A DNA stretch of 64,000 nt from an uncultured Candidatus Micrarchaeota archaeon (GCA_963714085.1 OY970229.1:928001-992000); one strand, 5' to 3'; counted from the first letter of the stretch, positions 35,608-47,504 are shown. The notes: a model not told the origin generated them from the letters alone. Made by a program: numbers and translations.

Positions 35608-36534
35608 TCAGAGGTTGACCTTGAGGCCGAGCTCCTTCTTGAGCTCGCGGTACCTGTTCCTGATGGTGACCTCGGTCACTCCTGCGACGTCGGCGACCTC
35701 CTTCTGGGTCTTCTTCTCTCCGAACATCGCGCTCGCGATGTAGAGCGCCGCGGCGGCCACGCCGGTCGGTCCCCTGCCTGAGATCAAACCTTTCTTGAGC
35801 GCCTTCTTTATTAGCCTGGTGGCCTCCTCCTGCACCTTGCCGCCCAGCCTGAGCGCGGTCGCGAACTTCGGCACGTACTGCGCCGGGTCGGTGAGCGGGA
35901 CGTTCACGTCCAGCTCGGTCTTCAGGAACCGGTATGCCCTGCCGATCTCCTTCTTCTCTATGCCGGACGCCCTGGATATCTCGTCCAACGTCCTGGGTAT
36001 GCCCTGCATCCTGCAGATGGCGTAGATGACCGCTGCGACCACGGATTCGATCAGCCTTCCGCGGATGAGCTCCTCCTTAACCGCCCTCCTGTAGAGGAGC
36101 GCGGCGGACTCCTTGATGTTCTCCGGAAGCCCCAGCGAGGATGCCACGCGGTCGAGCTCTGCTAGCGCGATGACCAGGTTCCTCTCCATGGACGTTGCGA
36201 TGGACACCCTCTTGTGCCATTTCCTCATCCTGTAGAGCTGGGCCTGCTTCTTGGGCGATATCTTCCCGCCCCTGATGTCCCTGTTATATTGGTCGATCTC
36301 GGTCACGAGTCCCTTGTTCGGCCTCATGTACTTTATCGGAGCGCCGCCCCTGGCCCTCTTGCCCTTCTGCTCGGCGTCGAAGGCGCGCCACTCCGGACCT
36401 AGGTCTTGGATGTTCTCGGCGATGATGAGCCCGCACTGGGCGCAGAGTACCTCTCCTTTCTCGTAGTCCCTGATGAGCCTGCTCCCCTTGCACTCAGGGC
36501 ATTTTGATACAGTCGTAGCTGCTTGTGTTGCCAT
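35608..36534 (-). CDS. tfb: Transcription initiation factor IIB
   Basis: CPEC..C..CG zinc ribbon, GPEWRAF B-reader, two cyclin repeats, VTEVTIRNRY; GGAGG RBS. Confidence 0.97.
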   Translation of the reverse strand: MATQAATTVSKCPECKGSRLIRDYEKGEVLCAQCGLIIAENIQDLGPEWRAFDAEQKGKRARGGAPIKYMRPNKGLVTEIDQYNRDIRGGKISPKKQAQLYRMRKWHKRVSIATSMERNLVIALAELDRVASSLGLPENIKESAALLYRRAVKEELIRGRLIESVVAAVIYAICRMQGIPRTLDEISRASGIEKKEIGRAYRFLKTELDVNVPLTDPAQYVPKFATALRLGGKVQEEATRLIKKALKKGLISGRGPTGVAAAALYIASAMFGEKKTQKEVADVAGVTEVTIRNRYRELKKELGLKVNL

Positions 36535-36602
36535 GTCAAAACCTCCCGATTCGCATAATAAGTTTTATAAATGTTACTCAGACGGGGTTTATATACCTGC
36601 GC

Positions 36603-36663
36603 TTTTTTCGGGCCTTGCACATAAACTATGGCCTGCACATAAATTGGGGGGTTTGCACATAAA
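36603..36663 (+). repeat. Left end: TTTTTTC duplication plus three TGCACATAAA motifs
   Basis: Motifs start at 36616, 36634 and 36654. Confidence 0.9.
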
Positions 36664-36685
36664 TTAAGGGAAAAAAATAATAACT

Positions 36686-36925
36686 TCATATCCGGTGTTT
36701 CTCAATGAAGGTAAGGAGTTCTCCTATTGAGTGAAACATTGCGCTATCCCCGCTTTGGGCGTGTTCGACACTTCCTTCCCAAAAGTGTCTAGTGAACCTT
36801 TTGCTCAGGGCGTTTGAGCGTATGTCGTGCCCTCTTGCCGATAGTTTAGCCTTGCTCATATCCCAAAGCCGGATTACAAATTTCGGCATGTCGCCCTTTC
36901 TTTTTACTTCGATTGTACTCTTCAT
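36686..36925 (-). CDS. Small hypothetical protein (element cargo)
   Basis: 79-aa ORF with GAGG RBS-like sequence; directly follows the 135-aa gene. Confidence 0.6.
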   Translation of the reverse strand: MKSTIEVKRKGDMPKFVIRLWDMSKAKLSARGHDIRSNALSKRFTRHFWEGSVEHAQSGDSAMFHSIGELLTFIEKHRI

Positions 36926-36935
36926 GTAATCGCCT

Positions 36936-37343
36936 CTAAACTTTCCCTTTTTTCGCCTTGAAGCTCTTCGCGTACTCCTCCAAAGACTTGCCAGTCAGAT
37001 CCTTGACTTGCTTGTCTGCCCAATAGCTCAAACTGACCTTATTGTCATGAGTCCACTGGAGGCTCGCACGCTTTCCGGTGAAAAATCCGGCAGATCCCTT
37101 CTTATCCTTGCCCATCTCGACCCAAAGTTCGTCGACCCGCTCTTTTGGTATCGGAGCTCCGTTAGCCTCGTTGTAGATTCGGCTCCAGAGCTCCATGCGG
37201 TCCTTCATCCAGCTAGGAATCTCGGCTTCGAGTCCCTCCTCCTGAACCTGCAATTCGGCCAAAAGAGTCGACGCTTCTTCCAACAGTCCCTGTATTTTCT
37301 CGATTTTTTCTTTTTCCTTGGTCATAAAATCCTCCTCCGCCAT
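36936..37343 (-). CDS. Hypothetical protein (element cargo), coiled N-terminus
   Basis: 135-aa ORF downstream of an AT-rich, TATA-containing region. Confidence 0.65.
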   Translation of the reverse strand: MAEEDFMTKEKEKIEKIQGLLEEASTLLAELQVQEEGLEAEIPSWMKDRMELWSRIYNEANGAPIPKERVDELWVEMGKDKKGSAGFFTGKRASLQWTHDNKVSLSYWADKQVKDLTGKSLEEYAKSFKAKKGKV

Positions 37344-37480
37344 ACTTATTTTCTTATTAATATTATATAGTATAGATATACTGTTTTATAAATATATCAT
37401 TTTTATCAAGTTTTGAGAATAGAACAATAAAAAAGAATGTCGTCTAAAAGTGTTTTTAAATCTCTTCTTCGTAAGATTAT

Positions 37481-37567
37481 TGGTGTTCGGTACCTTTGGG
37501 GAACCCAAGGCCCCTAACGGGTTCGATCGATGAGATCGCCAACGGTAATGAGCCAAAGGGTGCACCA
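37481..37567 (+). promoter_or_regulatory. Multi-branched structured leader or ncRNA upstream of the RNase H-PIN gene
   Basis: Pairings tggtg/cacca, cctttgg/ccaaagg, gaaccc/gggttc, gatc/gatc; TTTTTAAA about 25 nt upstream. Confidence 0.45.
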
Positions 37568-37577
37568 CATTGTATTC

Positions 37578-39065
37578 ATGGCATCCAAAGTCTACAGCAT
37601 CCCCAGCAAGGATGCATTTCTCGCCTTTAAACAGAGCATTTCGACTCGTTTCACTTTAGATAGTCTGGCGCCCAAACAGCACATGGAAGATTCTTTTTCA
37701 ATCAAGTCCCCGAGCGGCAATCTCAAGGTCGATTACTATGCGTCCGGAAAGCTCGTTTTACAAGGCAACGAAGGCATGCCGGTTTTTATAGCAATGAAAT
37801 CCGAGTTGGACAAGGCGTTCACACCTCTAGAAAAGCAAAGCCCCGCAGAAGCGGCAATCGACTTGTTTTTAATAGATAAAAAGTTCTTTATAGGAGGAGA
37901 TGAAGCAGGAACCGGAGAAACGTTTGGGAGCGCCTTTGTCGGCGTCATTGCATTCGAAAAAGAGTCCCTAAAGCAGCTCGCCGATTTCATTAAAGTGCGC
38001 GATGTGAAAAATGAGGGTAGGCAGGGCATCGGAAGCTTATTCCGTGCTGCCAAAAAACACATGTCAGCTTACAGAATAACCCCGATTACGGCATACCAGC
38101 TCGACATAAACAACAAGAATGTTCTTTTGGACGAGACATATGTTTCGCTTTTAAAAGAGCTGAAAGAGTATCTGCCCGCTTCCTGCATCATCATAGATGA
38201 TTACGGCGCAGGCCCACACTTACGTAATTTTTTGAAGAAATGCGAAGCAGAAGGCGCCCGCGTAATATTGGTCAACAAAGCCGATGCAACATACCTACCG
38301 TCGATGCTTGCTTCTGTTGTTGCCAGGGATGCGCGCCTGGAGGACATGGAGAAGTTGTCAGCAGAAAATGTCCTGATTAATAACGAGACAAACGAAAGCA
38401 TCGCCTTCACAAGCGGAAGCCCCTCAGATTCCAGCACGGAAAAATGGCTTCGGGAGTATAGGAAGATTAATCCGCACTCAGATTTTCCGCCTTTTGTCAG
38501 GAGAAAATGGGCTAATGTAATTCGGATTGAAAAAGAAGTCCCCAAGTCCAGCTTCGAGTACGCTTATACTTGCGCAAACTGCAAAGAAAAGGTGGGCAAA
38601 TCGTATTTTACCTTTCATAAAATAAAGAACGCGACTGAAATGCTATGCGCATGCGGTGCACCCATCGGAAAAAGCGAGATTACTACGACGTTCGGTAAAT
38701 GCTCGTTGGTACTAGATACGAGTGCCGTGATTGGCCGGATTCTTTCAAAGGACTTAGAGACATCGAGGTTAACGGCGGGCATGAAGGTTATACTACCTTC
38801 GTGTCTATATGAAGAATTAGACAAAAAAGAACCGGACAAAAGAAGGGGGGCTCTTCGCGAAATCGATTTTCTGAAGAAGAAAAGCGACGAAGGACTTATT
38901 CGGTTTGAAGAAGCGGATGTGTCTGCATGGGTTGGCATGTCATATGATGATCAAATCAAATATCTAGCGCAAACAAAAAAGGCAATTCTTTTGACCCAAG
39001 ACCGGAATCTCGCTGCTTGGACCGCCCTGGGGACATTCGTGTTCGAGATTAAGGTATTCGGCTAG
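37578..39065 (+). CDS. Fusion: TBP-like domain, RNase HII/HIII nuclease, Zn finger, PIN domain
   Basis: YYASGKLVLQG; IGGDEAGTGETFG, IIDDY, KAD....SMLAS..AR, SGSPSD..T..WL; CANC/CACG; VLDTSAVI...EEL...DD...LLTQDRNL. Confidence 0.8.
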   Translation: MASKVYSIPSKDAFLAFKQSISTRFTLDSLAPKQHMEDSFSIKSPSGNLKVDYYASGKLVLQGNEGMPVFIAMKSELDKAFTPLEKQSPAEAAIDLFLIDKKFFIGGDEAGTGETFGSAFVGVIAFEKESLKQLADFIKVRDVKNEGRQGIGSLFRAAKKHMSAYRITPITAYQLDINNKNVLLDETYVSLLKELKEYLPASCIIIDDYGAGPHLRNFLKKCEAEGARVILVNKADATYLPSMLASVVARDARLEDMEKLSAENVLINNETNESIAFTSGSPSDSSTEKWLREYRKINPHSDFPPFVRRKWANVIRIEKEVPKSSFEYAYTCANCKEKVGKSYFTFHKIKNATEMLCACGAPIGKSEITTTFGKCSLVLDTSAVIGRILSKDLETSRLTAGMKVILPSCLYEELDKKEPDKRRGALREIDFLKKKSDEGLIRFEEADVSAWVGMSYDDQIKYLAQTKKAILLTQDRNLAAWTALGTFVFEIKVFG

Positions 39066-39153
39066 TTTGTTTGTCTATAAAAGACTGGCGATGCGGGCTC
39101 CAAGTAACCAAAAACTAAACTAACAAGAAGCCAGGCGCGGTTATTCTACTCCC

Positions 39154-39178
39154 AACGACTTGACGAACTCCAGTCGTT
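39154..39178. terminator. Hairpin between convergent cargo genes
   Basis: aacgact (39154-60) pairs with agtcgtt (39172-78). Confidence 0.4.
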
Positions 39179-41855
39179 ATTTTGGTGGTTTAAACGCCCT
39201 AAGAATGAATTGTGCTTCGGCAGTATCAAGTTTTAAGGTGGATTCTAGTTTATGCCTCGCATCTATCCTCTTTTTCTTGGCTTCCTGCTCCAACTTCTGA
39301 GCGTCCATCAAGTTATTAACAAGCTCTCTAGAAAGATCTGCTGGGGGTAGAGGCATTTTAATAGAAGAAATTGTGTTCCATTTAACCCTTGTTCTATTGA
39401 CTCCAGTTGCAGTTAATAGTAAATCTGCCCGAACTTCTGGTGTTCGTAATAGCATCCATACGATGTATGGATCAAAACCAGCTTTTGCTTTCAAAATAGT
39501 GAATTCTTTAGCTACTACACAACCGTCAAATTCGGGCAGAACTACTGCCGCCGCACCATACGTTGCGCTGATGTGGCTAATAACAATTTGGCCAGTATGA
39601 ACACGATACAATTCTGGATATTTGCAATCCGATGCTAACTGTTCATCTCCCTTTCTTGCAAATCCGTCATATGTAACTAAGAGAAACGAGACACTTTCAC
39701 TAGATTCAGAAGTATCGATAACATCTTCTTCACTTGGTTCAATAGGTTCGACAAGTTCGGATAGACTAGCTACTCGAAGACCCATATTAGTCCAGTTACG
39801 AATCTGACGGCCTGGAGTTTCAAGGCACGATTTTACATCCATTCTATCGGCGATGCGGGAGGACGGCACTACGAATTTCCTGACTGATGGGTCACCATTT
39901 AGGAATCGGTGGAATAGTTCGACAACCGTTTTTATTTCAGAAATGGCGTTTTGCCGATTAATCGCATCAATGGGAAGAATTCTTTGACGTGCAGGGTCAT
40001 CAAGTCCGATATGTATGCAACCATACATGAATACAGAACCTTGCTCTTGCATGGCTCCCTCTGTTTTAGCATCGTCTTCATCAGCTTTTTTTTCGAGGTA
40101 TAGTAGAGAGGTTTTTACTCTTGCTTGTGAACGCTGAAATGCATCTCCGGGTAGGGAGATGACTGCTTTGACAATGAACTTTTTTCGTATAAAATCTCTA
40201 ACCCAACTCATATCAGAACCACTAAGTATGCCGTCATCGATAACTGTTACCATCCTTCCGCCAGTTTTCAGGAGGTCATAGTATCGTTCGAGAAACATGA
40301 TGCTTGATTTCAAACCTTCTCTCGGAGTTTTCTGGCCATTTTCTAAGTTAAAACCTAGTTCATATTGATCAAGAACCTTAGCCTCGGAAGGCGTTTTTCG
40401 GTCATACGTTTTAGCAAACGGTGGGTTGGTTATAACTACATCTGCAAATCCCTTGCGCCCGATTAATTTCGCTAGTTCTTTTTTTTCAACTTTGACTTCT
40501 AAACTATCATTAGTCAGTATCGTCAGCTCTTTGTCTAGCACATCAGCTTCAAAGATTTTACTTGCTCCATCTCCGTGCAAATGCATATTCATCCGAGTTA
40601 AACGGGACATGTTGGGTTCTTTGCCAGCATCCACTCCGAATAGCTGATTATCGGCAATCGCTTTTTTCATCTCTGCTTTTTGTTTTTGGGATAACGACGA
40701 GTTTGCATCTATTTTAGCCCATATCTCTACCAATGCCTCGATTAAGAATCCGCCCGTTCCGCAACACGCATCTAAAACAACATCACAACGATTTCGTTCG
40801 AGTTGAATGTCTGCAAGGCGTGTCCCCAGCTTAACTATGCTTCTTGGAGTAAAGAATTGACCCAAATCTTTACCTCGCATTGTTGCGTTCAGGAACCTTT
40901 CAAAGAGACGACCATTCAAGTCTGCTTCGATACCGAAAAGATAGATGTGTTCTAATTTCCCTACGACTCCACTTATGATTTCCGGGCTGAGATTGATGTG
41001 ATCATTAGCCTCAAAAATGCGTTTCGTAGTCCCATCTCGGATGGCCTTTTCAAGTTCTTCTAATAGTTCATGGAATTGAATCGTATCCATGGGATTTTGG
41101 GCATCACTTTCTCTGCTTTTAATCCATGAAGAAGAAAAATGAACATCCTCAGCTTTCACATTAAACTGTTTTAGATTAACTAACTCAGGATATTTCGCTC
41201 TGATAAAGCGGTCAGATAAAAGCTTCAGAAAGACTAGCTTTACAAATTCTTCAAAACCCGCAGCTTGACTGATATTACCTTTCTTGTAGATATACTGATG
41301 GCACCAAGCAAAAGTGGCATTGAGTGATTCGAGGGCGGTGGGCTTAAGAAGTTCGTGCATGTCCGTAGCTGGCATTGGCTCTTTCGCTACTAGGTTTTCT
41401 CTGCTCATTAGCCGCTGCAAGTCTTTGAACTTGGGATTAGAGTCAGTAAAGTCATCAAAGTTCATCTTCACGAGTGGCTTATCAGAATCCCACTCATATA
41501 GTTCAGTAAAAACACCATTTGTGATGAGAAAAAACTGAACTGGATTTTCATTTTTGAACGTTTGATTTAGCATCAGGCAGTAACCTGCGCATTGTGACAG
41601 ATACTTGTGTATCGGCTCTGATGGGGATTTGGCATCAATTACTAATCGAGGTTTAGTTTTCAACTTTATGATGTAGTCCGGCGTATATGGAACCTTTTTG
41701 CTTCCCAAAGAAACAACGACGCTCTTAATCTGAGTTTTTGGGATTATCTCACTGTCTTTGAAGCCCAAATCTTGCAGCAATCGATTTAGAAAAAACTGTT
41801 CTACTGACGCCTCGTTCGATAGATTTGTCGAAGCGCAGTATTTGTTTTTGCTCAT
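39177..41855 (-). CDS. Single-chain restriction-modification enzyme (HsdR_N-like nuclease, N6-adenine MTase, specificity-like domain; Type IIG/IIB-like)
   Basis: PDY...IDAK, GQFFTPR, DACCGTGGFL, ITNPPF, C-terminal HsdS-like region. Confidence 0.88.
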   Translation of the reverse strand: MSKNKYCASTNLSNEASVEQFFLNRLLQDLGFKDSEIIPKTQIKSVVVSLGSKKVPYTPDYIIKLKTKPRLVIDAKSPSEPIHKYLSQCAGYCLMLNQTFKNENPVQFFLITNGVFTELYEWDSDKPLVKMNFDDFTDSNPKFKDLQRLMSRENLVAKEPMPATDMHELLKPTALESLNATFAWCHQYIYKKGNISQAAGFEEFVKLVFLKLLSDRFIRAKYPELVNLKQFNVKAEDVHFSSSWIKSRESDAQNPMDTIQFHELLEELEKAIRDGTTKRIFEANDHINLSPEIISGVVGKLEHIYLFGIEADLNGRLFERFLNATMRGKDLGQFFTPRSIVKLGTRLADIQLERNRCDVVLDACCGTGGFLIEALVEIWAKIDANSSLSQKQKAEMKKAIADNQLFGVDAGKEPNMSRLTRMNMHLHGDGASKIFEADVLDKELTILTNDSLEVKVEKKELAKLIGRKGFADVVITNPPFAKTYDRKTPSEAKVLDQYELGFNLENGQKTPREGLKSSIMFLERYYDLLKTGGRMVTVIDDGILSGSDMSWVRDFIRKKFIVKAVISLPGDAFQRSQARVKTSLLYLEKKADEDDAKTEGAMQEQGSVFMYGCIHIGLDDPARQRILPIDAINRQNAISEIKTVVELFHRFLNGDPSVRKFVVPSSRIADRMDVKSCLETPGRQIRNWTNMGLRVASLSELVEPIEPSEEDVIDTSESSESVSFLLVTYDGFARKGDEQLASDCKYPELYRVHTGQIVISHISATYGAAAVVLPEFDGCVVAKEFTILKAKAGFDPYIVWMLLRTPEVRADLLLTATGVNRTRVKWNTISSIKMPLPPADLSRELVNNLMDAQKLEQEAKKKRIDARHKLESTLKLDTAEAQFILRAFKPPK

Positions 41856-42190
41856 TTCCCCGCCTTCCTTATCCGATCTTTCGACGCTTCAATAACCTTT
41901 TGTCCTACAGGGCAACTACTAAATTCCTTTTTGCTCCAATCAATCATTTTGTGCTCATCAAAGAGCATATCACAATCATCACAAATATACGCATGAGCTA
42001 TTATCGAAACAAGACCGGAATGCGCGTCACCTTCGGAATCCATGCTGCAAAAAGGGAAGTCGCCTCCATTTAATCTAGGAGAAGCATGGGTGCCACACCA
42101 TCCGGTTACATCTACGATACAGCCGCTTCCACAATTTGGGCATTTGCCTTCTAGAAATGCTTTTTTATTAAACTTTTCGTCACTTCCCAT
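41852..42190 (-). CDS. Cys-rich zinc-finger protein (cargo)
   Basis: CPNCG and CDDC; overlaps the R-M start by 4 nt. Confidence 0.6.
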   Translation of the reverse strand: MGSDEKFNKKAFLEGKCPNCGSGCIVDVTGWCGTHASPRLNGGDFPFCSMDSEGDAHSGLVSIIAHAYICDDCDMLFDEHKMIDWSKKEFSSCPVGQKVIEASKDRIRKAGK

Positions 42191-42195
42191 TTACC

Positions 42196-42426
42196 TCACC
42201 TAATCCACCAAATCCAGATACCTCTCCCGGCCTTCAGTTGTTTACCATTAATGCGGTTATCGCCTCGTAACATAAGTAAGCGATGAAAAACCTTGGTGCG
42301 TGTGATTTTCTTATCTTTAAAACGGTCTACGATTTCCATAGTTTCAAGAGGTTCTTGTGCCATTCTTATGATGGAATAAAGATTTTCACGAACAAGATCT
42401 TCTTTGCCGTACTTTTTTCCATCCAT
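42196..42426 (-). CDS. Small winged-helix-like protein (cargo)
   Basis: 76 aa, helical with a terminal GIWIWW beta-wing; heads the R-M operon. Confidence 0.6.
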   Translation of the reverse strand: MDGKKYGKEDLVRENLYSIIRMAQEPLETMEIVDRFKDKKITRTKVFHRLLMLRGDNRINGKQLKAGRGIWIWWIR

Positions 42427-42546
42427 AGATAAAAGTATATATTGATAGATTTATGAATCAACCTTTCCATAAATACTTCAAAATATTAATCGATGAATGT
42501 ATAGAACTAGCTATAACTCATAAAACAGAAGAAGGCACAAAGAGAG

Positions 42547-43335
42547 CTATGGTTTCTCGGGTTTTGGAGGGTAATAGACCCCGATTATTAGCCACTCATT
42601 CCAATTACTCTCTGTTCCTACAAAAAAGTACACGTCCTTTTTAGATAAAAATTCCGTCTTATACTTCTGGACACATTTTTGAATTGCGGTTTCTTCAGTT
42701 CCATATTTCTTTAGCATCTGCCGATATAACTCCAACAATTCCCAGTCTTCTACCATCATATCATGACCAGGACAGGTAGCATCACACCTAAACTTATATG
42801 CAAAACGGTAAGGGATTTTGTCTAATGGACTTTTGTATGGTTCCCCCCCCAATGTCTTCTGCTTTCCTTCGACCAAATCTTTTTCCCAACCTCTTGCTTT
42901 TTCAATTGGTTCGGCATAAAAGTCGTCGATAAATTCTGGGTGGATGAATCCCAAAGACGTGTGGTCCTTATCATACTCGGTTTTAAGTGCCTCTATTGAT
43001 GGCATTAAGAATGGTAATAAGAACGTGTTTCGTTTTTTCCAGTCGCCTTCTGTAGGGATATACTTTCCAGTACGTACAATCGTATCGTCCTTGACTTTAT
43101 GACTTTCTTTCCGTTTGAACTTTTCATTCGGGTTGTGCTCCGCATTTACCTCGATCAACTCGAATTTATGAGGTCTTTTTTCATAAGGTAAATCGAAAAA
43201 TCTTACCGGGTATATCCTAATCCATTCTTTAGCGTCAATGTCAATTCCGGCCATACAAGCCGTTCGTTCATATTTTCGACTAAGGTTGGGGTATGTTTTT
43301 ACCAAAAGAAGAACCTTCCTTCTTTTGAATGTCAT
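42547..43335 (-). CDS. Uncharacterised DUF488-associated protein
   Basis: VKTYP..S.KY..T.C.AGI, WIRIYPV.F, SLG, KF.C....C.GH....DWE, F.VGT; 4-nt overlap with the DUF488 gene. Confidence 0.7.
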   Translation of the reverse strand: MTFKRRKVLLLVKTYPNLSRKYERTACMAGIDIDAKEWIRIYPVRFFDLPYEKRPHKFELIEVNAEHNPNEKFKRKESHKVKDDTIVRTGKYIPTEGDWKKRNTFLLPFLMPSIEALKTEYDKDHTSLGFIHPEFIDDFYAEPIEKARGWEKDLVEGKQKTLGGEPYKSPLDKIPYRFAYKFRCDATCPGHDMMVEDWELLELYRQMLKKYGTEETAIQKCVQKYKTEFLSKKDVYFFVGTESNWNEWLIIGVYYPPKPEKP

Positions 43336-44135
43336 ATATCTACCACCCTGAACCCATCCCGAATCAATTTCTTTTTTATGATGCTCCTATGGCATTTGTT
43401 AACGTCCTTTTCAAAACACATCATCACCGTTTTCCTTACCTGAGCCAACCCTTCAAGATCCAACAACTGTTCTTGAGATTCGGGTTTTGATAGTGCTTCT
43501 TCGTACTCTTTAAAAAACTCAGGATAATCCCACCCCTCCCAAAGCTTATGTCTAAGTTCCCTTGGCGATCCTAAAAGCGGGAAGTGTTTGTATACAATCC
43601 CGTTTTCCTGAAGTGCTTTCGACAACGCTGATTTTGCAAAACCATTTTTCCTACTAAAAGCGAGTTCTCTTACGTCGATTACCTGCTGAACCCCATTTTC
43701 CTTCAAAACACCGACAAATTCTAATAGATTCTTGCCTTCGTATCCGATGGTAAATACTACAGTGTCGCTTTTATGCGGGAGATACCAGTAAGTCAAGGTC
43801 CCTTCCTTCCTTCTTTGAAGCTTAACCTCTTCTTCAAGTCGCCTAACCCATGAGTTGTTTGGGACTTCTTGTGGCAGACCGAGTTTGGTTTTTATATCAT
43901 GCCACGTCATGCCTGCCTTTGTTTTGTTCAATAAGTTCGTGATCTTAATTTTGAACTCTTCATACGTCAATACGTCCGATTTTATTACGACAAGTCCTTC
44001 CGTAGTTACATGAGTTTTGAGGTTTTGGCCTTCTTTCCATCCGAGTAATGCTATGTCGCTGGGTGGGATGGTTATTACCCATTTTGTATACTCTTTATCA
44101 TCGACCTTTCTGGATAGCTGTTTTTGTAATTGCAT
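43332..44135 (-). CDS. AbrB-like DNA-binding domain, HTH-like domain and DUF488 fusion
   Basis: ITIP......LGWKEG; FTIGYEG, IDVR....SRKNGF.K, LGSP, MCFE.....CHR. Confidence 0.82.
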   Translation of the reverse strand: MQLQKQLSRKVDDKEYTKWVITIPPSDIALLGWKEGQNLKTHVTTEGLVVIKSDVLTYEEFKIKITNLLNKTKAGMTWHDIKTKLGLPQEVPNNSWVRRLEEEVKLQRRKEGTLTYWYLPHKSDTVVFTIGYEGKNLLEFVGVLKENGVQQVIDVRELAFSRKNGFAKSALSKALQENGIVYKHFPLLGSPRELRHKLWEGWDYPEFFKEYEEALSKPESQEQLLDLEGLAQVRKTVMMCFEKDVNKCHRSIIKKKLIRDGFRVVDI

Positions 44136-44145
44136 ATCTCTGTCT

Positions 44146-44235
44146 TAGGTACCAATATTTATATATCTTGGTAGGTACCTACATAGTATTTAAATCAATA
44201 GGTACCTAATATATCTGTAAGCTGTTAGGTACCTA
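44146..44235. promoter_or_regulatory. Four palindromic TAGGTACCTA-type boxes in a divergent promoter
   Basis: Copies at 44146 (TAGGTACCAA), 44172, 44199 and 44226, spaced 26/27/27 nt, interleaved with TATA-like tracts. Confidence 0.8.
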
Positions 44236-44244
44236 AGATATGAA

Positions 44245-45471
44245 ATGATACACTGGATGATTGAAATGCCTGAACAAAACCCACCCTGCAAGCACTGCGG
44301 CTCTCCCTTCGTCATCCGAGACAGCGTAATCCAAACCGCCGAATGGGAGAACGGGATATACACCTGCTGCCGATGCATGAGGAGCTTCACCCAAAAGGTC
44401 GAGAAAAAGATGGAAATCGAAAGACCCGAAGGCTTCCAGTCCTTCCTCCCTCCGCCCAGCCCTACAGCGCCTATCCAATGGTCCCAATACAACGAGGCTC
44501 AGGTGCGCGAGAAGCTCCTGTTCCTCGAAATCCTCCAAGACCTGTGCTCCAGGCTTCCGGACGGAGAACCGGGCAAGGTAGGCCGTCCCAGGGCTTCCAC
44601 AAGAGAGATGGTCTTCTGCATGGTAGCCAAGCTCTACGAGGGACTGTCCTCCCGCAGGGTGTCTTCGGACCTCCAAATAGCCGCCCAAAGGGGCCATATC
44701 GCCAAGGTCCCGCATTTCAATACTGTCCTCAAGTACTTCAACGATCCCGGCATGGCGCCGCTCCTGACCGGGCTTATCCAGCTCTCATCGCTTCCTCTGA
44801 GGGACTTCGAGACCACGTTCGCGGTGGATGCAAGCGGCCTCAGCTCCGCGTTCTATTCGAGATGGTTCGATTACAGGTTCGGGCATCTCGACGGAAGGGA
44901 AAGCAAGGCCCACGACTGGATAAAAATCCACGTCGTCTGCGGGGTGAAGTCAAACATCGTGACCTCAATTGTTGTCACCGACGGCAAGACCAGTGACTGC
45001 CCCCAATTTCCCGCGCTCCTGAAGACCACGGCGGAGAACTTCGACGTCAAGGAAATCACGGCGGATAAGGGTTATTCAAGTCGGCGGAATATCGACGCGG
45101 CATTCGAGATCGGCGCCGTCCCGCTCATCCCATTCAAGTCCAATACTACGGGAAACGCGGGCGGAAGCCTAGCCTGGAGCAAGATGTACCATTACTACCA
45201 GCTGCAAAGGGAGGCTTTCCTGGCTCGGTACCACCAGCGGAGCAACGTAGAAAGCACGTTCAGCGCCCTGAAAAGGAAGTTCTCGACCAAGCTTATGCTG
45301 AAAAACGAGCCCGCCCAGGTCAACGAAGCCCTTGCCATGATCCTTTGCCACAACATCTGCGTCCTGATCCGGGAAGCGTTCGAGAACGGGATTTCTACTG
45401 AGTTCGAGGGGGTTGCACATAAAGTTCCGGTGCTGCACATAAAGGAGGGGATAACGTTTGGAAATCGCTAA
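44245..45471 (+). CDS. IS4/IS5-superfamily DDE transposase with N-terminal zinc ribbon
   Basis: CKHC/CCRC, GRP, AVDASG, KIH, ADKGY, Y(2)R(3)E(6)K signature YHQRSNVESTFSALK, CHNI. Confidence 0.9.
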   Translation: MIHWMIEMPEQNPPCKHCGSPFVIRDSVIQTAEWENGIYTCCRCMRSFTQKVEKKMEIERPEGFQSFLPPPSPTAPIQWSQYNEAQVREKLLFLEILQDLCSRLPDGEPGKVGRPRASTREMVFCMVAKLYEGLSSRRVSSDLQIAAQRGHIAKVPHFNTVLKYFNDPGMAPLLTGLIQLSSLPLRDFETTFAVDASGLSSAFYSRWFDYRFGHLDGRESKAHDWIKIHVVCGVKSNIVTSIVVTDGKTSDCPQFPALLKTTAENFDVKEITADKGYSSRRNIDAAFEIGAVPLIPFKSNTTGNAGGSLAWSKMYHYYQLQREAFLARYHQRSNVESTFSALKRKFSTKLMLKNEPAQVNEALAMILCHNICVLIREAFENGISTEFEGVAHKVPVLHIKEGITFGNR

Positions 45472-45548
45472 TTTGTGTGCAATGCCCTTTTTTCGGGATT
45501 TGCACATAAACTAGGGGCTGCACATAAATCGGGCTGCTTGCACATAAA
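45414..45548. repeat. Right end plus adjacent orphan left end: six TGCACATAAA-type motifs
   Basis: Direct copies at 45414, 45434, 45501, 45519, 45539; inverted copy TTTGTGTGCA at 45472. Confidence 0.9.
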
Positions 45549-45578
45549 ATAAGGGATAAAACAATCGACGTCCGGGCT

Positions 45579-46154
45579 CTATCTACCGAACCTTCTCTCG
45601 AGCAGCTCGGCGGGCGGCTTGGTGAAAAGATAGTACTTCTCGTGGCCCTCGAGCTCGTTGAGTATCCTGTGGCTGAAGACCGCTACCGGGTCGGCAAGGC
45701 TCGGCACCCTCTTGTGGAGGTCCGCGAAGCTCTCGAACGGAGTCTTCTCCCGCTCTGTGAGCAGCGCCTCCATGGTCTTCTTGCCTATGCCTGGGAGCAG
45801 GTCCAGGGTGTGCACCCTTATGGATATGGGCTTGGCCCTGTTGAGGAAGTCCACGAACTCCTTCTCCCGCTCCGTTATCGCCTTCTTCACTATGTTCGGC
45901 AGGAATTCCCTCGCGCCGTTTGTGAGGTCCTCGTATTTTATCCTGCCCTTGATGTGCTCGACCTCCTGCCTGCCCTCCTTGCCCACGCACACCTTCTGGC
46001 CTATCACTATGGCCGCTTCCGGCTTGACCGACGCCTCGAGCAGGGTGAAGAACCTTGTGCCCAGCAGCTGGACCATGGGCTCCCTCTTTATGGCAGCCGC
46101 ATGGCCAAGTGGCATGTATTCGACGACCCAGGCGTAGTCCTCCATAGTGAACAT
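45579..46154 (-). CDS. DUF655 family predicted RNA-binding protein
   Basis: FTLLE, H.LDLLPGIGKK HhH, PFESF; usual position after rpoF. Confidence 0.9.
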   Translation of the reverse strand: MFTMEDYAWVVEYMPLGHAAAIKREPMVQLLGTRFFTLLEASVKPEAAIVIGQKVCVGKEGRQEVEHIKGRIKYEDLTNGAREFLPNIVKKAITEREKEFVDFLNRAKPISIRVHTLDLLPGIGKKTMEALLTEREKTPFESFADLHKRVPSLADPVAVFSHRILNELEGHEKYYLFTKPPAELLERRFGR

Positions 46155-46934: not shown

Positions 46935-47504
46935 GTGGTCTTTTTGTCTAAAAACCCCGAATTCGTAATCACGAACATGGTGGCTTCTGCGTCGCTCGGC
47001 CTCGAGCTCGACCTCTACTCGCTTGCGCAGAAGATAAAGGAGATAGAGTACGAGCCCGAGCAGTTCCCAGGAGCCATACTGAAGTTCAAGGATCCCAAGG
47101 CGTCGCTGCTCCTCTTCAAGAACGGCAAGGTCGTGTGCGTCGGCTGCAAGAAGCGCTCGCTCATAGAGAAGACCATAGAGAGGACCATAAAGCTCCTCAC
47201 GCCCTACGCCAAGAGGATAACCAAGACCAAGAAGCCCAAGATAGAGATAACCAACATCGTCGCCTCGGCCGCCCTCGGCATAGACCTGGACCTCTACAAG
47301 ATCGCCTACAAGGTCAAGGACGTGGAATACGAGCCCGAGCAGTTCCCCGGAGCCATACTGAAGTTCAAGGAACCGAAGGCATCATTGCTCCTCTTCAAGA
47401 ACGGGAAGGTCATATGCGCCGGAGCGAAGAACGAAGCGGACATACGCACCGTGCTCCGCAAGGCCAAGACCCTCCTAGAGAAATACAGCGAGAAGAAGAA
47501 ATGA
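46935..47504 (+). CDS. tbp: TATA-box binding protein
   Basis: Two N.VAS...YEPEQFPG...LLFKNGKV.C.G repeats. Confidence 0.96.
   Translation: MVFLSKNPEFVITNMVASASLGLELDLYSLAQKIKEIEYEPEQFPGAILKFKDPKASLLLFKNGKVVCVGCKKRSLIEKTIERTIKLLTPYAKRITKTKKPKIEITNIVASAALGIDLDLYKIAYKVKDVEYEPEQFPGAILKFKEPKASLLLFKNGKVICAGAKNEADIRTVLRKAKTLLEKYSEKKK

Follow-up and report, generated by a model that had tools for sequence, protein, structure and literature searches.

Analysis of a 64,000-nucleotide stretch of DNA from an uncultured Candidatus Micrarchaeota archaeon (GCA_963714085.1 OY970229.1:928001-992000; hereafter the window, on whose full length all positions are counted) revealed an 8,876-bp cargo transposon at 36611-45486, inserted 6 bp from the predicted TATA box of tfb, the gene for transcription factor B (TFB), and the same spacing recurs among the archaeal members of a large transposon family. 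We hold with high confidence, as a joint assessment, that the segment is one autonomous, non-composite cargo transposon, from an apparently unnamed IS5-family branch near the IS903 group, and that the register of insertion is fixed. Comparison of the family's sequences further points, with moderate confidence, to a host factor as the ruler, namely the complex of TATA-binding protein (TBP), alone or with TFB, on the promoter. Below, G000 is the host genome (1.57 Mb), G001 and G002 are genomes of the same genus, and L numbers are homologous loci.

Boundaries and phased ends of the element

A first-pass annotation had placed the element at 36603..45494; the element proved real, and its boundaries were reset using the target-site duplication (TSD) of homologues and their terminal inverted repeat (TIR), which starts with GGC. 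Homologues share a grammar in which a 9-bp TSD precedes GGCTTTGCACATAAA at the left end and follows TTTATGTGCAAAGCC at the right. The heptamer TTTTTTC, correctly reported outside both ends, belongs to such a TSD, CTTTTTTCG, an affiliation that had been overlooked; its copies lie at 36602..36610 and 45487..45495 (both plus strand), the left copy being supported by the homologue grammar and by a single copy at the empty site of G001. The TIRs, at 36611-36625 (GGCCTTGCACATAAA) and 45472-45486 (minus strand; TTTGTGTGCAATGCC as read on the plus strand), are identical at 13 of 15 positions; the 16-mers proposed earlier do differ at 2 of 16 positions, but homologues set the true length at 15 bp.

The left end (36611..36663, plus strand) joins its TIR to three phased TGCACATAAA sites at offsets 5, 23 and 43, in agreement with the three sites first noticed there, and the transposase stop codon (45471) does abut the right TIR (45472). 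Three features had escaped that first inspection: the 9-bp TSD as such; two subterminal TGCACATAAA sites inside the 3' end of the transposase open reading frame (ORF; 45414..45443, plus strand), oriented as the left-end sites and 73 and 53 bp from the terminus; and, outside the right TIR, a solo second left end (45496..45561, plus strand) with three intact sites, no body and no right end, which we read as what is left of an older copy inserted at this target. Together with the element's own left end, it makes up a 79-nt direct repeat with 86% identity. The 10-bp consensus TGCACAYAAA has nine exact matches in the window, all at the two ends (36616, 36634 and 36654; 45414 and 45434; inverted at 45472-45481; 45501, 45519 and 45539); with up to one mismatch there are 11 matches against 4.06 expected, a number reached in none of 100 shuffles. 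The eight cargo ORFs are AT-rich, as had been stated (GC 0.42, against 0.56 and 0.60 in the flanks and 0.56 in the transposase gene), and the host genome holds one transposase copy; the earlier description of a non-composite, defence-carrying transposon with a single DDE transposase stands. In contigs of one read run, which contains the stretch and possibly represents its source sample, the depth of the element was about that of its flanks; these were low-depth contigs with no joints listed, silent on circles.

These ends recur. Among 22 complete elements, left sites at offsets 5, 23 and 43 were present in 22, 15 and 14, respectively; right subterminal sites are oriented as the left ones and lie mostly 33, 43, 53, 63 or 73 bp from the terminus, and most bacterial members have an extra inverted site at 54 bp in the right end. 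As judged from these sequences, the family's ends are helically phased, asymmetric and conserved, and the recurrence of multi-site ends with variable cargo, proposed as a check on the first annotation, was seen across homologues.

Insertion at a 6-bp register from archaeal TATA boxes

Insertion flanks were scored for a TATA motif, TWTWWAWA with up to one mismatch, the gap being the number of nucleotides from the end of the TSD to the start of the motif; redundant flanks, flanks abutting another end (6, 3, 6 and 1 in the four sets), L234 and the offset left flank of L061 were removed. The motif stood at a gap of exactly 6 in 21 of 43 flanks of archaeal loci located by their transposase and in 22 of 37 flanks of a third set, made up of new archaeal left ends that were collected by pattern after the hypothesis and the motif had been fixed (43 of 80 for both archaeal sets); likewise, 23 of 46 metagenome flanks carried it, as against 0 of 34 bacterial flanks. 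The background was 1.7% within the same flanks and 3.7% at random intergenic sites of G000. Other gaps were each represented by at most eight flanks per set, gaps 4 and 8 being echoes of the periodic motif. The target is one-sided: in 23 archaeal elements with two flanks, the motif was found on the left only in 12, on the right only in 6, on both sides in none and on neither in 5.

Insertion might instead be random or AT-biased, with purifying selection sparing only the copies upstream of promoters; gene-dense genomes (G000 is crudely 4% intergenic) must purge most insertions, and the survivors alone are visible. Selection would permit any gap of 6 or more, yet of the 56 archaeal flanks in which a TATA-like motif stood anywhere from gap 6 to gap 40, 43 had it at exactly 6, compared with 9% at random intergenic sites; survivor bias is thereby ruled out as the cause of the register, and we give this explanation very little probability.

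Positions that had played no part in selecting the motif carry a further signal. Across 66 TATA flanks, C was found at -7 in 34, a purine at -6 in 52, A at -4 in 43 and A at -3 in 55. The consensus of the TFB-recognition element (BRE) is cRNaANt, and it is the BRE pattern that the sequence between TSD and TATA displays at these unselected positions. The BRE sits upstream of TATA, and TFB makes backbone contacts beyond it (PMC2699501; here and below, cited sources are represented by the part of their text that was available). At tfb, the minus strand reads TSD-CGCAGG-TATATAAA: the predicted TATA box (36588..36595, minus strand) is 6 bp off the TSD, and the segment CGCAGG at 36596..36601 (minus strand) occupies the BRE positions, the family profile being C(-7) R(-6) A(-4) A(-3). 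In archaeal insertions the TSD ends at the BRE's upstream edge, with an intact promoter that faces away from the element. The position next to tfb, correctly given in the first-pass annotation and taken there as location only, is in fact the most informative feature of the element, since members of the family insert upstream of TATA boxes in a fixed register.

An outward ORF lay behind the TATA motif in 56 of the 66 flanks; 49 of these were scanned (7 doubtful ones excluded), and 25 had a Pfam family. The host genes concerned include tfb (in the window, L175 and L270), thermosome (three cases), rpoH (two), the ribosomal proteins S19e and S12, proteasome, GAPDH and gyrB, and no tRNA gene turned up in the 400 nt behind any of the 66 TATA flanks. 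By eye, the left flank of L178, a metagenome locus, places that insertion in or beside a tRNA-like sequence, not a TATA box. The gap-6 register is seen with zinc-ribbon, SWIM-type (L110, L119 and L126) and short transposase N-termini; an N-terminal zinc ribbon was accordingly rejected as the reader of the TATA box, since members with the other two N-termini keep the same register.

In bacteria, a scan for -35/-10 elements in 35 flanks gave no common register. Three Dehalococcoidales loci (L106, L132 and L134) have a 9-bp TSD containing TTG(A/T)CA, with a -10-like hexamer 17 bp further on in L132 and L134; it is possible, from these sequences, that this subclade targets sigma-70 promoters. Three other bacterial loci with the same ends (L125, L128 and L133) are inserted at the centre of palindromic CCC(C/T)TCT-n9-AGA(G/A)GG sites resembling repetitive extragenic palindromes.

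History of the tfb site and the source of the register

The host gene DUF655 flanks the element on the right, and 29 relative loci around it were compared. In G001 and G002 it is adjacent to tfb with no motif array between them. At the empty site, G001 carries one copy of CTTTTTTCG in the corresponding position, followed by GCAACA-TATTTAAA, the TATA box TATTTAAA standing at the same place as TATATAAA. The TATA box is found beyond the TSD and already exists where the element is missing, and the idea that the element itself had brought it was rejected on that ground. In a metagenome relative with about 92% nucleotide identity, L175, the order is tfb, TATA, 9-mer, solo left end and DUF655, with no body; from its sequence, this may be either the state before the present insertion or the state after loss by recombination between two left ends. 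The array at tfb in L175 without an element could also suggest that the TGCACATAAA arrays are host regulatory sites of the tfb promoter, and the transposase an ordinary insertion sequence (IS) next to an island unrelated to it. The array is missing from G001 and G002, however, the same arrays delimit unrelated cargo at many different archaeal and bacterial loci, where the 9-bp TSDs are perfect, and no TIR-like match stands just upstream of the transposase; we attach next to no probability to such a regulatory origin.

The element's left end, the solo left end and the L175 array are mutual nearest neighbours among 99 distinct left ends, with 6-11 mismatches over 67 positions compared with a median of 22, and their 30 motif positions are unchanged; it follows that one element lineage used the tfb site twice. 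A search of G000 for a distant right end that might have partnered the solo left end found none (three loose matches, one of them the element's own right end). Elsewhere in the family, 18 junctions of the form right end-9 bp-left end were listed, one of them an artefact, leaving 17. Where the promoter of a stack is known (the window, L072, L227 and the CCGCCCACC and GAATGGGAT stacks), the 9-mer shared by its members is the copy next to the TATA box. L264 and L067 hold stacks of at least three family elements separated by the same 9-mer, the latter mixing a full element, an 86-bp miniature inverted-repeat transposable element (MITE) with a variant motif (TGCTCCTAAA) and another left end. Apparently solo left ends with downstream ORFs number 26; these are candidate remnants.

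Stacks could also arise from incoming copies that target existing ends, as IS911, IS30 and IS26 do, or from local duplication, the solo left end then being a landing pad or a recombination product. The close kinship of the three tfb left ends and the 17 junctions are compatible with this, and IS3, IS30 and IS26 are described as targeting existing ends (PMC7986276). Most single insertions with no neighbouring end are nevertheless also at gap 6, the shared 9-mer of promoter-known stacks is TATA-adjacent, and end-targeting would explain stacking alone, not the first insertion; we regard it as improbable.

In the mechanism that we propose instead, the transposase would bind the TGCACAYAAA sites, building a phased transpososome on both ends, and would make a 9-bp staggered cut next to a kinked core promoter bound by TBP, alone or with TFB, which would supply the ruler. 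As promoter and 9-mer survive, later copies would insert in that register and shift their predecessors outward; such reinsertion with outward displacement would give the right end-TSD-solo left end junction observed here as well as the stacks elsewhere. Deletions between the direct-oriented left and right sites would yield MITEs of 66-106 bp, and the pay-off would be a harmless docking site for a defence cassette in gene-dense genomes. MITEs have been found: a 40-199-bp scan returned 12, all of 66, 76, 86, 96 or 106 bp, and by arithmetic a deletion from left site 2 to right site 1 of the present element would leave exactly 96 bp. One MITE of the family lies in the host genome itself (G000:C1:223528-223593, 66 bp, TSD TCCAGACTG), its right flank reading CAAACC and then a TATA-like CTTTTAAT. 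A right-end-like TIR is also present at G000 C1:176570, with CAAGGC-ATTTAAAA outside it and an AT-rich box about 6 bp out; no matching TSD was found for this end, and at G000:C1:175895-176570 a short stretch before the TIR recurs about 600 bp upstream, around an ORF of 198 aa.

A ruler formed by TBP or TBP-TFB is suggested because the target is one-sided, includes BRE positions, is kept across three kinds of N-terminus and is absent in bacteria. The fuller proposal, that the transposase is tethered to the TBP-TFB-promoter complex and that housekeeping core promoters act as reusable docks at which restriction-modification and other defence cassettes accumulate in arrival order, seems to us evenly poised; analogous precedents for tethering to promoter machinery may be seen in TnGBS/ISLre2 (PMC3942029) and in Ty3 with TBP (10.1101/2021.07.27.453949). 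A complex prediction of the transposase with host TBP and the TFB core (score 0.00, the controls not having been folded) counts neither for nor against it.

Several observations weigh against this reading. The case for host-factor contact is comparative and indirect, and the TATA motif was chosen after the first two flank sets had been seen. About half of the archaeal flanks, and 5 of the 23 two-flank elements, have no gap-6 motif; in Methanomicrobiales and Thermoplasmatota the rule holds at 4 of 9 sites and fails at 5, and 3 of 13 loci gave no ends. The enrichment of ATG-started ORFs 30-120 nt downstream is modest (36/58 versus 23/55). The architecture is not that of every homologue, the right TIR adjoining the transposase stop in 33 of 46 archaeal and 22 of 48 bacterial loci. 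Finally, bacterial members fall nearly all in one clade of a quick tree (unrooted, as the outgroup branch was too long), so that a single loss of intrinsic sequence preference would explain the contrast between archaea and bacteria equally well.

That last point bears on an alternative in which element and register are the same, and direct readout of the BRE-TATA sequence, or of its bendability, by the transposase takes the place of any host protein. IS903 prefers a flanking consensus and bent DNA. The clustering of bacterial members is in keeping with direct readout, as are the palindromic CCCCTCT-n9-AGAGGGG-type targets of L125, L128 and L133, which indicate that target reading can vary by clade. 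Unlike these palindromes, however, the archaeal target is confined to one side (none of 23 elements has the motif on both flanks); BRE positions of importance to TFB alone are part of it, and its register persists across the three N-termini. We consider direct readout less likely and retain the TBP or TBP-TFB ruler as the favoured explanation.

Cargo, spread and relation to known systems

The target gene tfb (35608..36534, minus strand; Pfam TFIIB and Zn_Ribbon_TF) is intact and 99% identical to its G001 orthologue. The DUF655 gene (45579..46154, minus strand; PF04919) adjoins tfb in G001 and in G002. The host gene for TBP is at 46935-47504, 1.4 kb right of the element, and tfb and tbp flank the insertion region.

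Inside the element, two cargo ORFs of 79 aa (36686..36925, minus strand) and 135 aa (36936..37343, minus strand) have no family. They are followed on the plus strand by a 511-aa protein, counted from its first start (37530..39065), with an RNase HII/HIII-like domain (PF01351, E 1.4e-16) and a weak C-terminal PIN-like domain (PIN_4, E 0.014, below cut-off); its first ESM Atlas match was a 240-member, 505-aa RNase_HII cluster at 0.96, and a cysteine-rich middle precedes its PIN-like tail. Its domains make it possible that this protein is an undescribed defence nuclease. The remaining cargo is on the minus strand: a predicted single-chain type IIG-like restriction-modification (R-M) protein of 892 aa with HSDR_N-like, N6-MTase and specificity domains (39177..41855); a small zinc-ribbon protein of 112 aa (41852..42190; weak Zn_ribbon_8 match below cut-off); a possible winged-helix protein of 76 aa (42196..42426; weak Pfam match, E 0.084); a PDC-M19B-like protein with a weak DuOB match, a candidate defence gene (42547..43335; PADLOC E 1.5e-62); and a PDC-M19A-like DUF488 protein with a 120-aa N-terminal extension that has no Pfam family (43332..44135). 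Between the divergent cargo and transposase genes lie four AGGTACC(T/A) palindromes at 26-27-bp spacing (44147..44234), out of seven matches in the window against 1.28 expected; they are probably an operator array, and their position suggests joint repression of cargo and transposase. The transposase itself (44245..45471, plus strand; 408 aa, PF01609) has an N-terminal CxxC..CxxC zinc ribbon and the catalytic residues D195, D274 and E336, which are invariant in a 45-sequence alignment (A1).

The family is widespread. The transposase matched 3,203 proteins; 72 of 401 genomes of the phylum had a match at E<=1e-20 and 32 of 401 had the left-end pattern, both tallies including G214, and a reversed control pattern was found in none. 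A genome-wide scan confirmed 584 of 621 stretches, of which 80 were kept, with hosts among small-genome archaea, Hadarchaeota, methanogens, Acidobacteria, Chloroflexi and others; 94 transposase loci were analysed after 7 duplicates had been dropped. Neither a transposase relative nor the left-end pattern was found in viral contigs. Complete elements (n=28) measure 2.6-10.2 kb. Their 114 ORFs of at least 90 aa were scanned at E<=1e-8, and DNA methyltransferases were carried by 19 of the 28 elements (15/21 archaeal or metagenomic and 4/7 bacterial); two further elements had PDC-S01 or ShosTA-like matches, and seven (L066, L085, L105, L126, L087, L099 and L128) had no cargo match at this threshold.

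The family amounts to a large mobile reservoir of R-M and candidate defence cassettes whose ends are precise, and it can help in the discovery of new defence genes. Docking one BRE-length upstream of a TATA box, at a reusable site, would allow gene-dense archaeal genomes to gain defence genes with no gene broken, and would bring the archaeal basal machinery into promoter-guided transposition, which is known from yeast Ty3 and from Mutator-like elements of bacteria. Tethering to TBP-TFB, if true, could be developed into a tool for safe-harbour integration in archaea.

Elements of the Tn7, Mu and Tn5053 types have asymmetric ends, each with several transposase sites, and carry large cargo; Tn7- and Mu-like elements have an AAA+ helper (TnsC/MuB), a 5-bp TSD and TG...CA termini. 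The likeness to Tn7 and Mu drawn in the first-pass annotation extends to the end arrays of predicted transposase sites, the asymmetry of the ends and the large cargo, and fails beyond these: the TSD is 9 bp, the termini are GGC, the right subterminal sites are direct rather than inverted, and no helper ATPase or target-selector gene was found among the eight cargo ORFs with Pfam and NCBIfam.

The statement that no named family applies was likewise too weak, as transposase, TIR start and TSD length place the element beside the IS903 group of IS5. By hhalign, the transposase aligns with that of ISPpa3 over 260 columns (24% identity, probability 98.5, E 2e-15); PF01609 is its only Pfam match, its NCBIfam matches are of IS5/IS4 type, which speaks against a Mutator-type transposase, and it reaches 118.7 bits with the IS5 model NF033579, below the cut-off of 140, other IS5 models scoring far lower. 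Its best plasmid matches are IS5-like (about 25% identity), the A1 profile had no sequence match among solved structures, and an AlphaFold model (pLDDT 85) gave only weak Foldseek matches to DDE proteins, ISCth4 and Tn5 (TM 0.33-0.44). A Paracoccus table (PMC3281130) lists ISPpa3 in the IS903 group, with TIRs of 15-27 bp and 9-bp direct repeats, and IS903 itself is treated in PMC9282650. With this group (ISPpa3, ISVa2, ISEcl3 and IS903) the element shares a homologous DDE_Tnp_1 transposase, a GGC-starting TIR (for ISPpa3, by eye) of similar length and the 9-bp TSD; known members, in contrast, are about 1.05 kb and carry a transposase only between simple ends, whereas here 8,876 bp with cargo, a zinc-ribbon or SWIM N-terminus, phased asymmetric multi-site ends and a fixed TATA register are found. 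By these sequence characters the element is IS903-like and not a member of the IS903 group, because size, cargo, extra domain and multi-site ends differ and the IS5 cut-off is missed.

In carrying passenger genes within a single TIR pair with one transposase, the element works like a transporter IS (tIS), a class defined by passenger genes inside one TIR pair (PMC7986276), or a unit transposon. R-M genes between TIRs with short TSDs have been described as transposon-like units (Furuta et al. 2010, PMC2853133); in the available part of that account these are proteobacterial, have 8-bp TSDs and no transposase, in contrast to the whole autonomous family with apparent promoter targeting seen here. 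Archaeal IS-like elements carry 1-2 genes, according to the part available of a survey of the thaumarchaeal mobilome (PMC6563490). In the literature and abstracts searched, neither the family nor TATA-registered archaeal transposition was described; ISfinder entries or supplementary tables could hold members.

TnGBS, ISLre2 and ISKra4 insert upstream of the sigma-A -35 box, at a distance of 15-17 bp, a habit suggested to keep damage low, and the only archaeal element mentioned in the available text is ISH6, whose target duplication is an AT-rich motif and which may have a preference for promoters (Guerillot et al. 2014, PMC3942029). The fixed distance upstream of promoters is analogous to that of the archaeal BRE-TATA at gap 6; those elements differ in their transposase superfamily (Mutator-like), in using bacterial promoters and in being mostly oriented, the present family inserting in both orientations. 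In Ty3, the intasome contacts TBP within TFIIIB and the basal machinery sets the integration register (10.1101/2021.07.27.453949), as is proposed, by analogy, for the present family. Ty3 is a eukaryotic retroelement whose integrase acts at Pol III genes, whereas here a prokaryotic DNA transposon lands upstream of the BRE; tethering to TBP-TFB, if true, would be the prokaryotic counterpart of Ty3 targeting.

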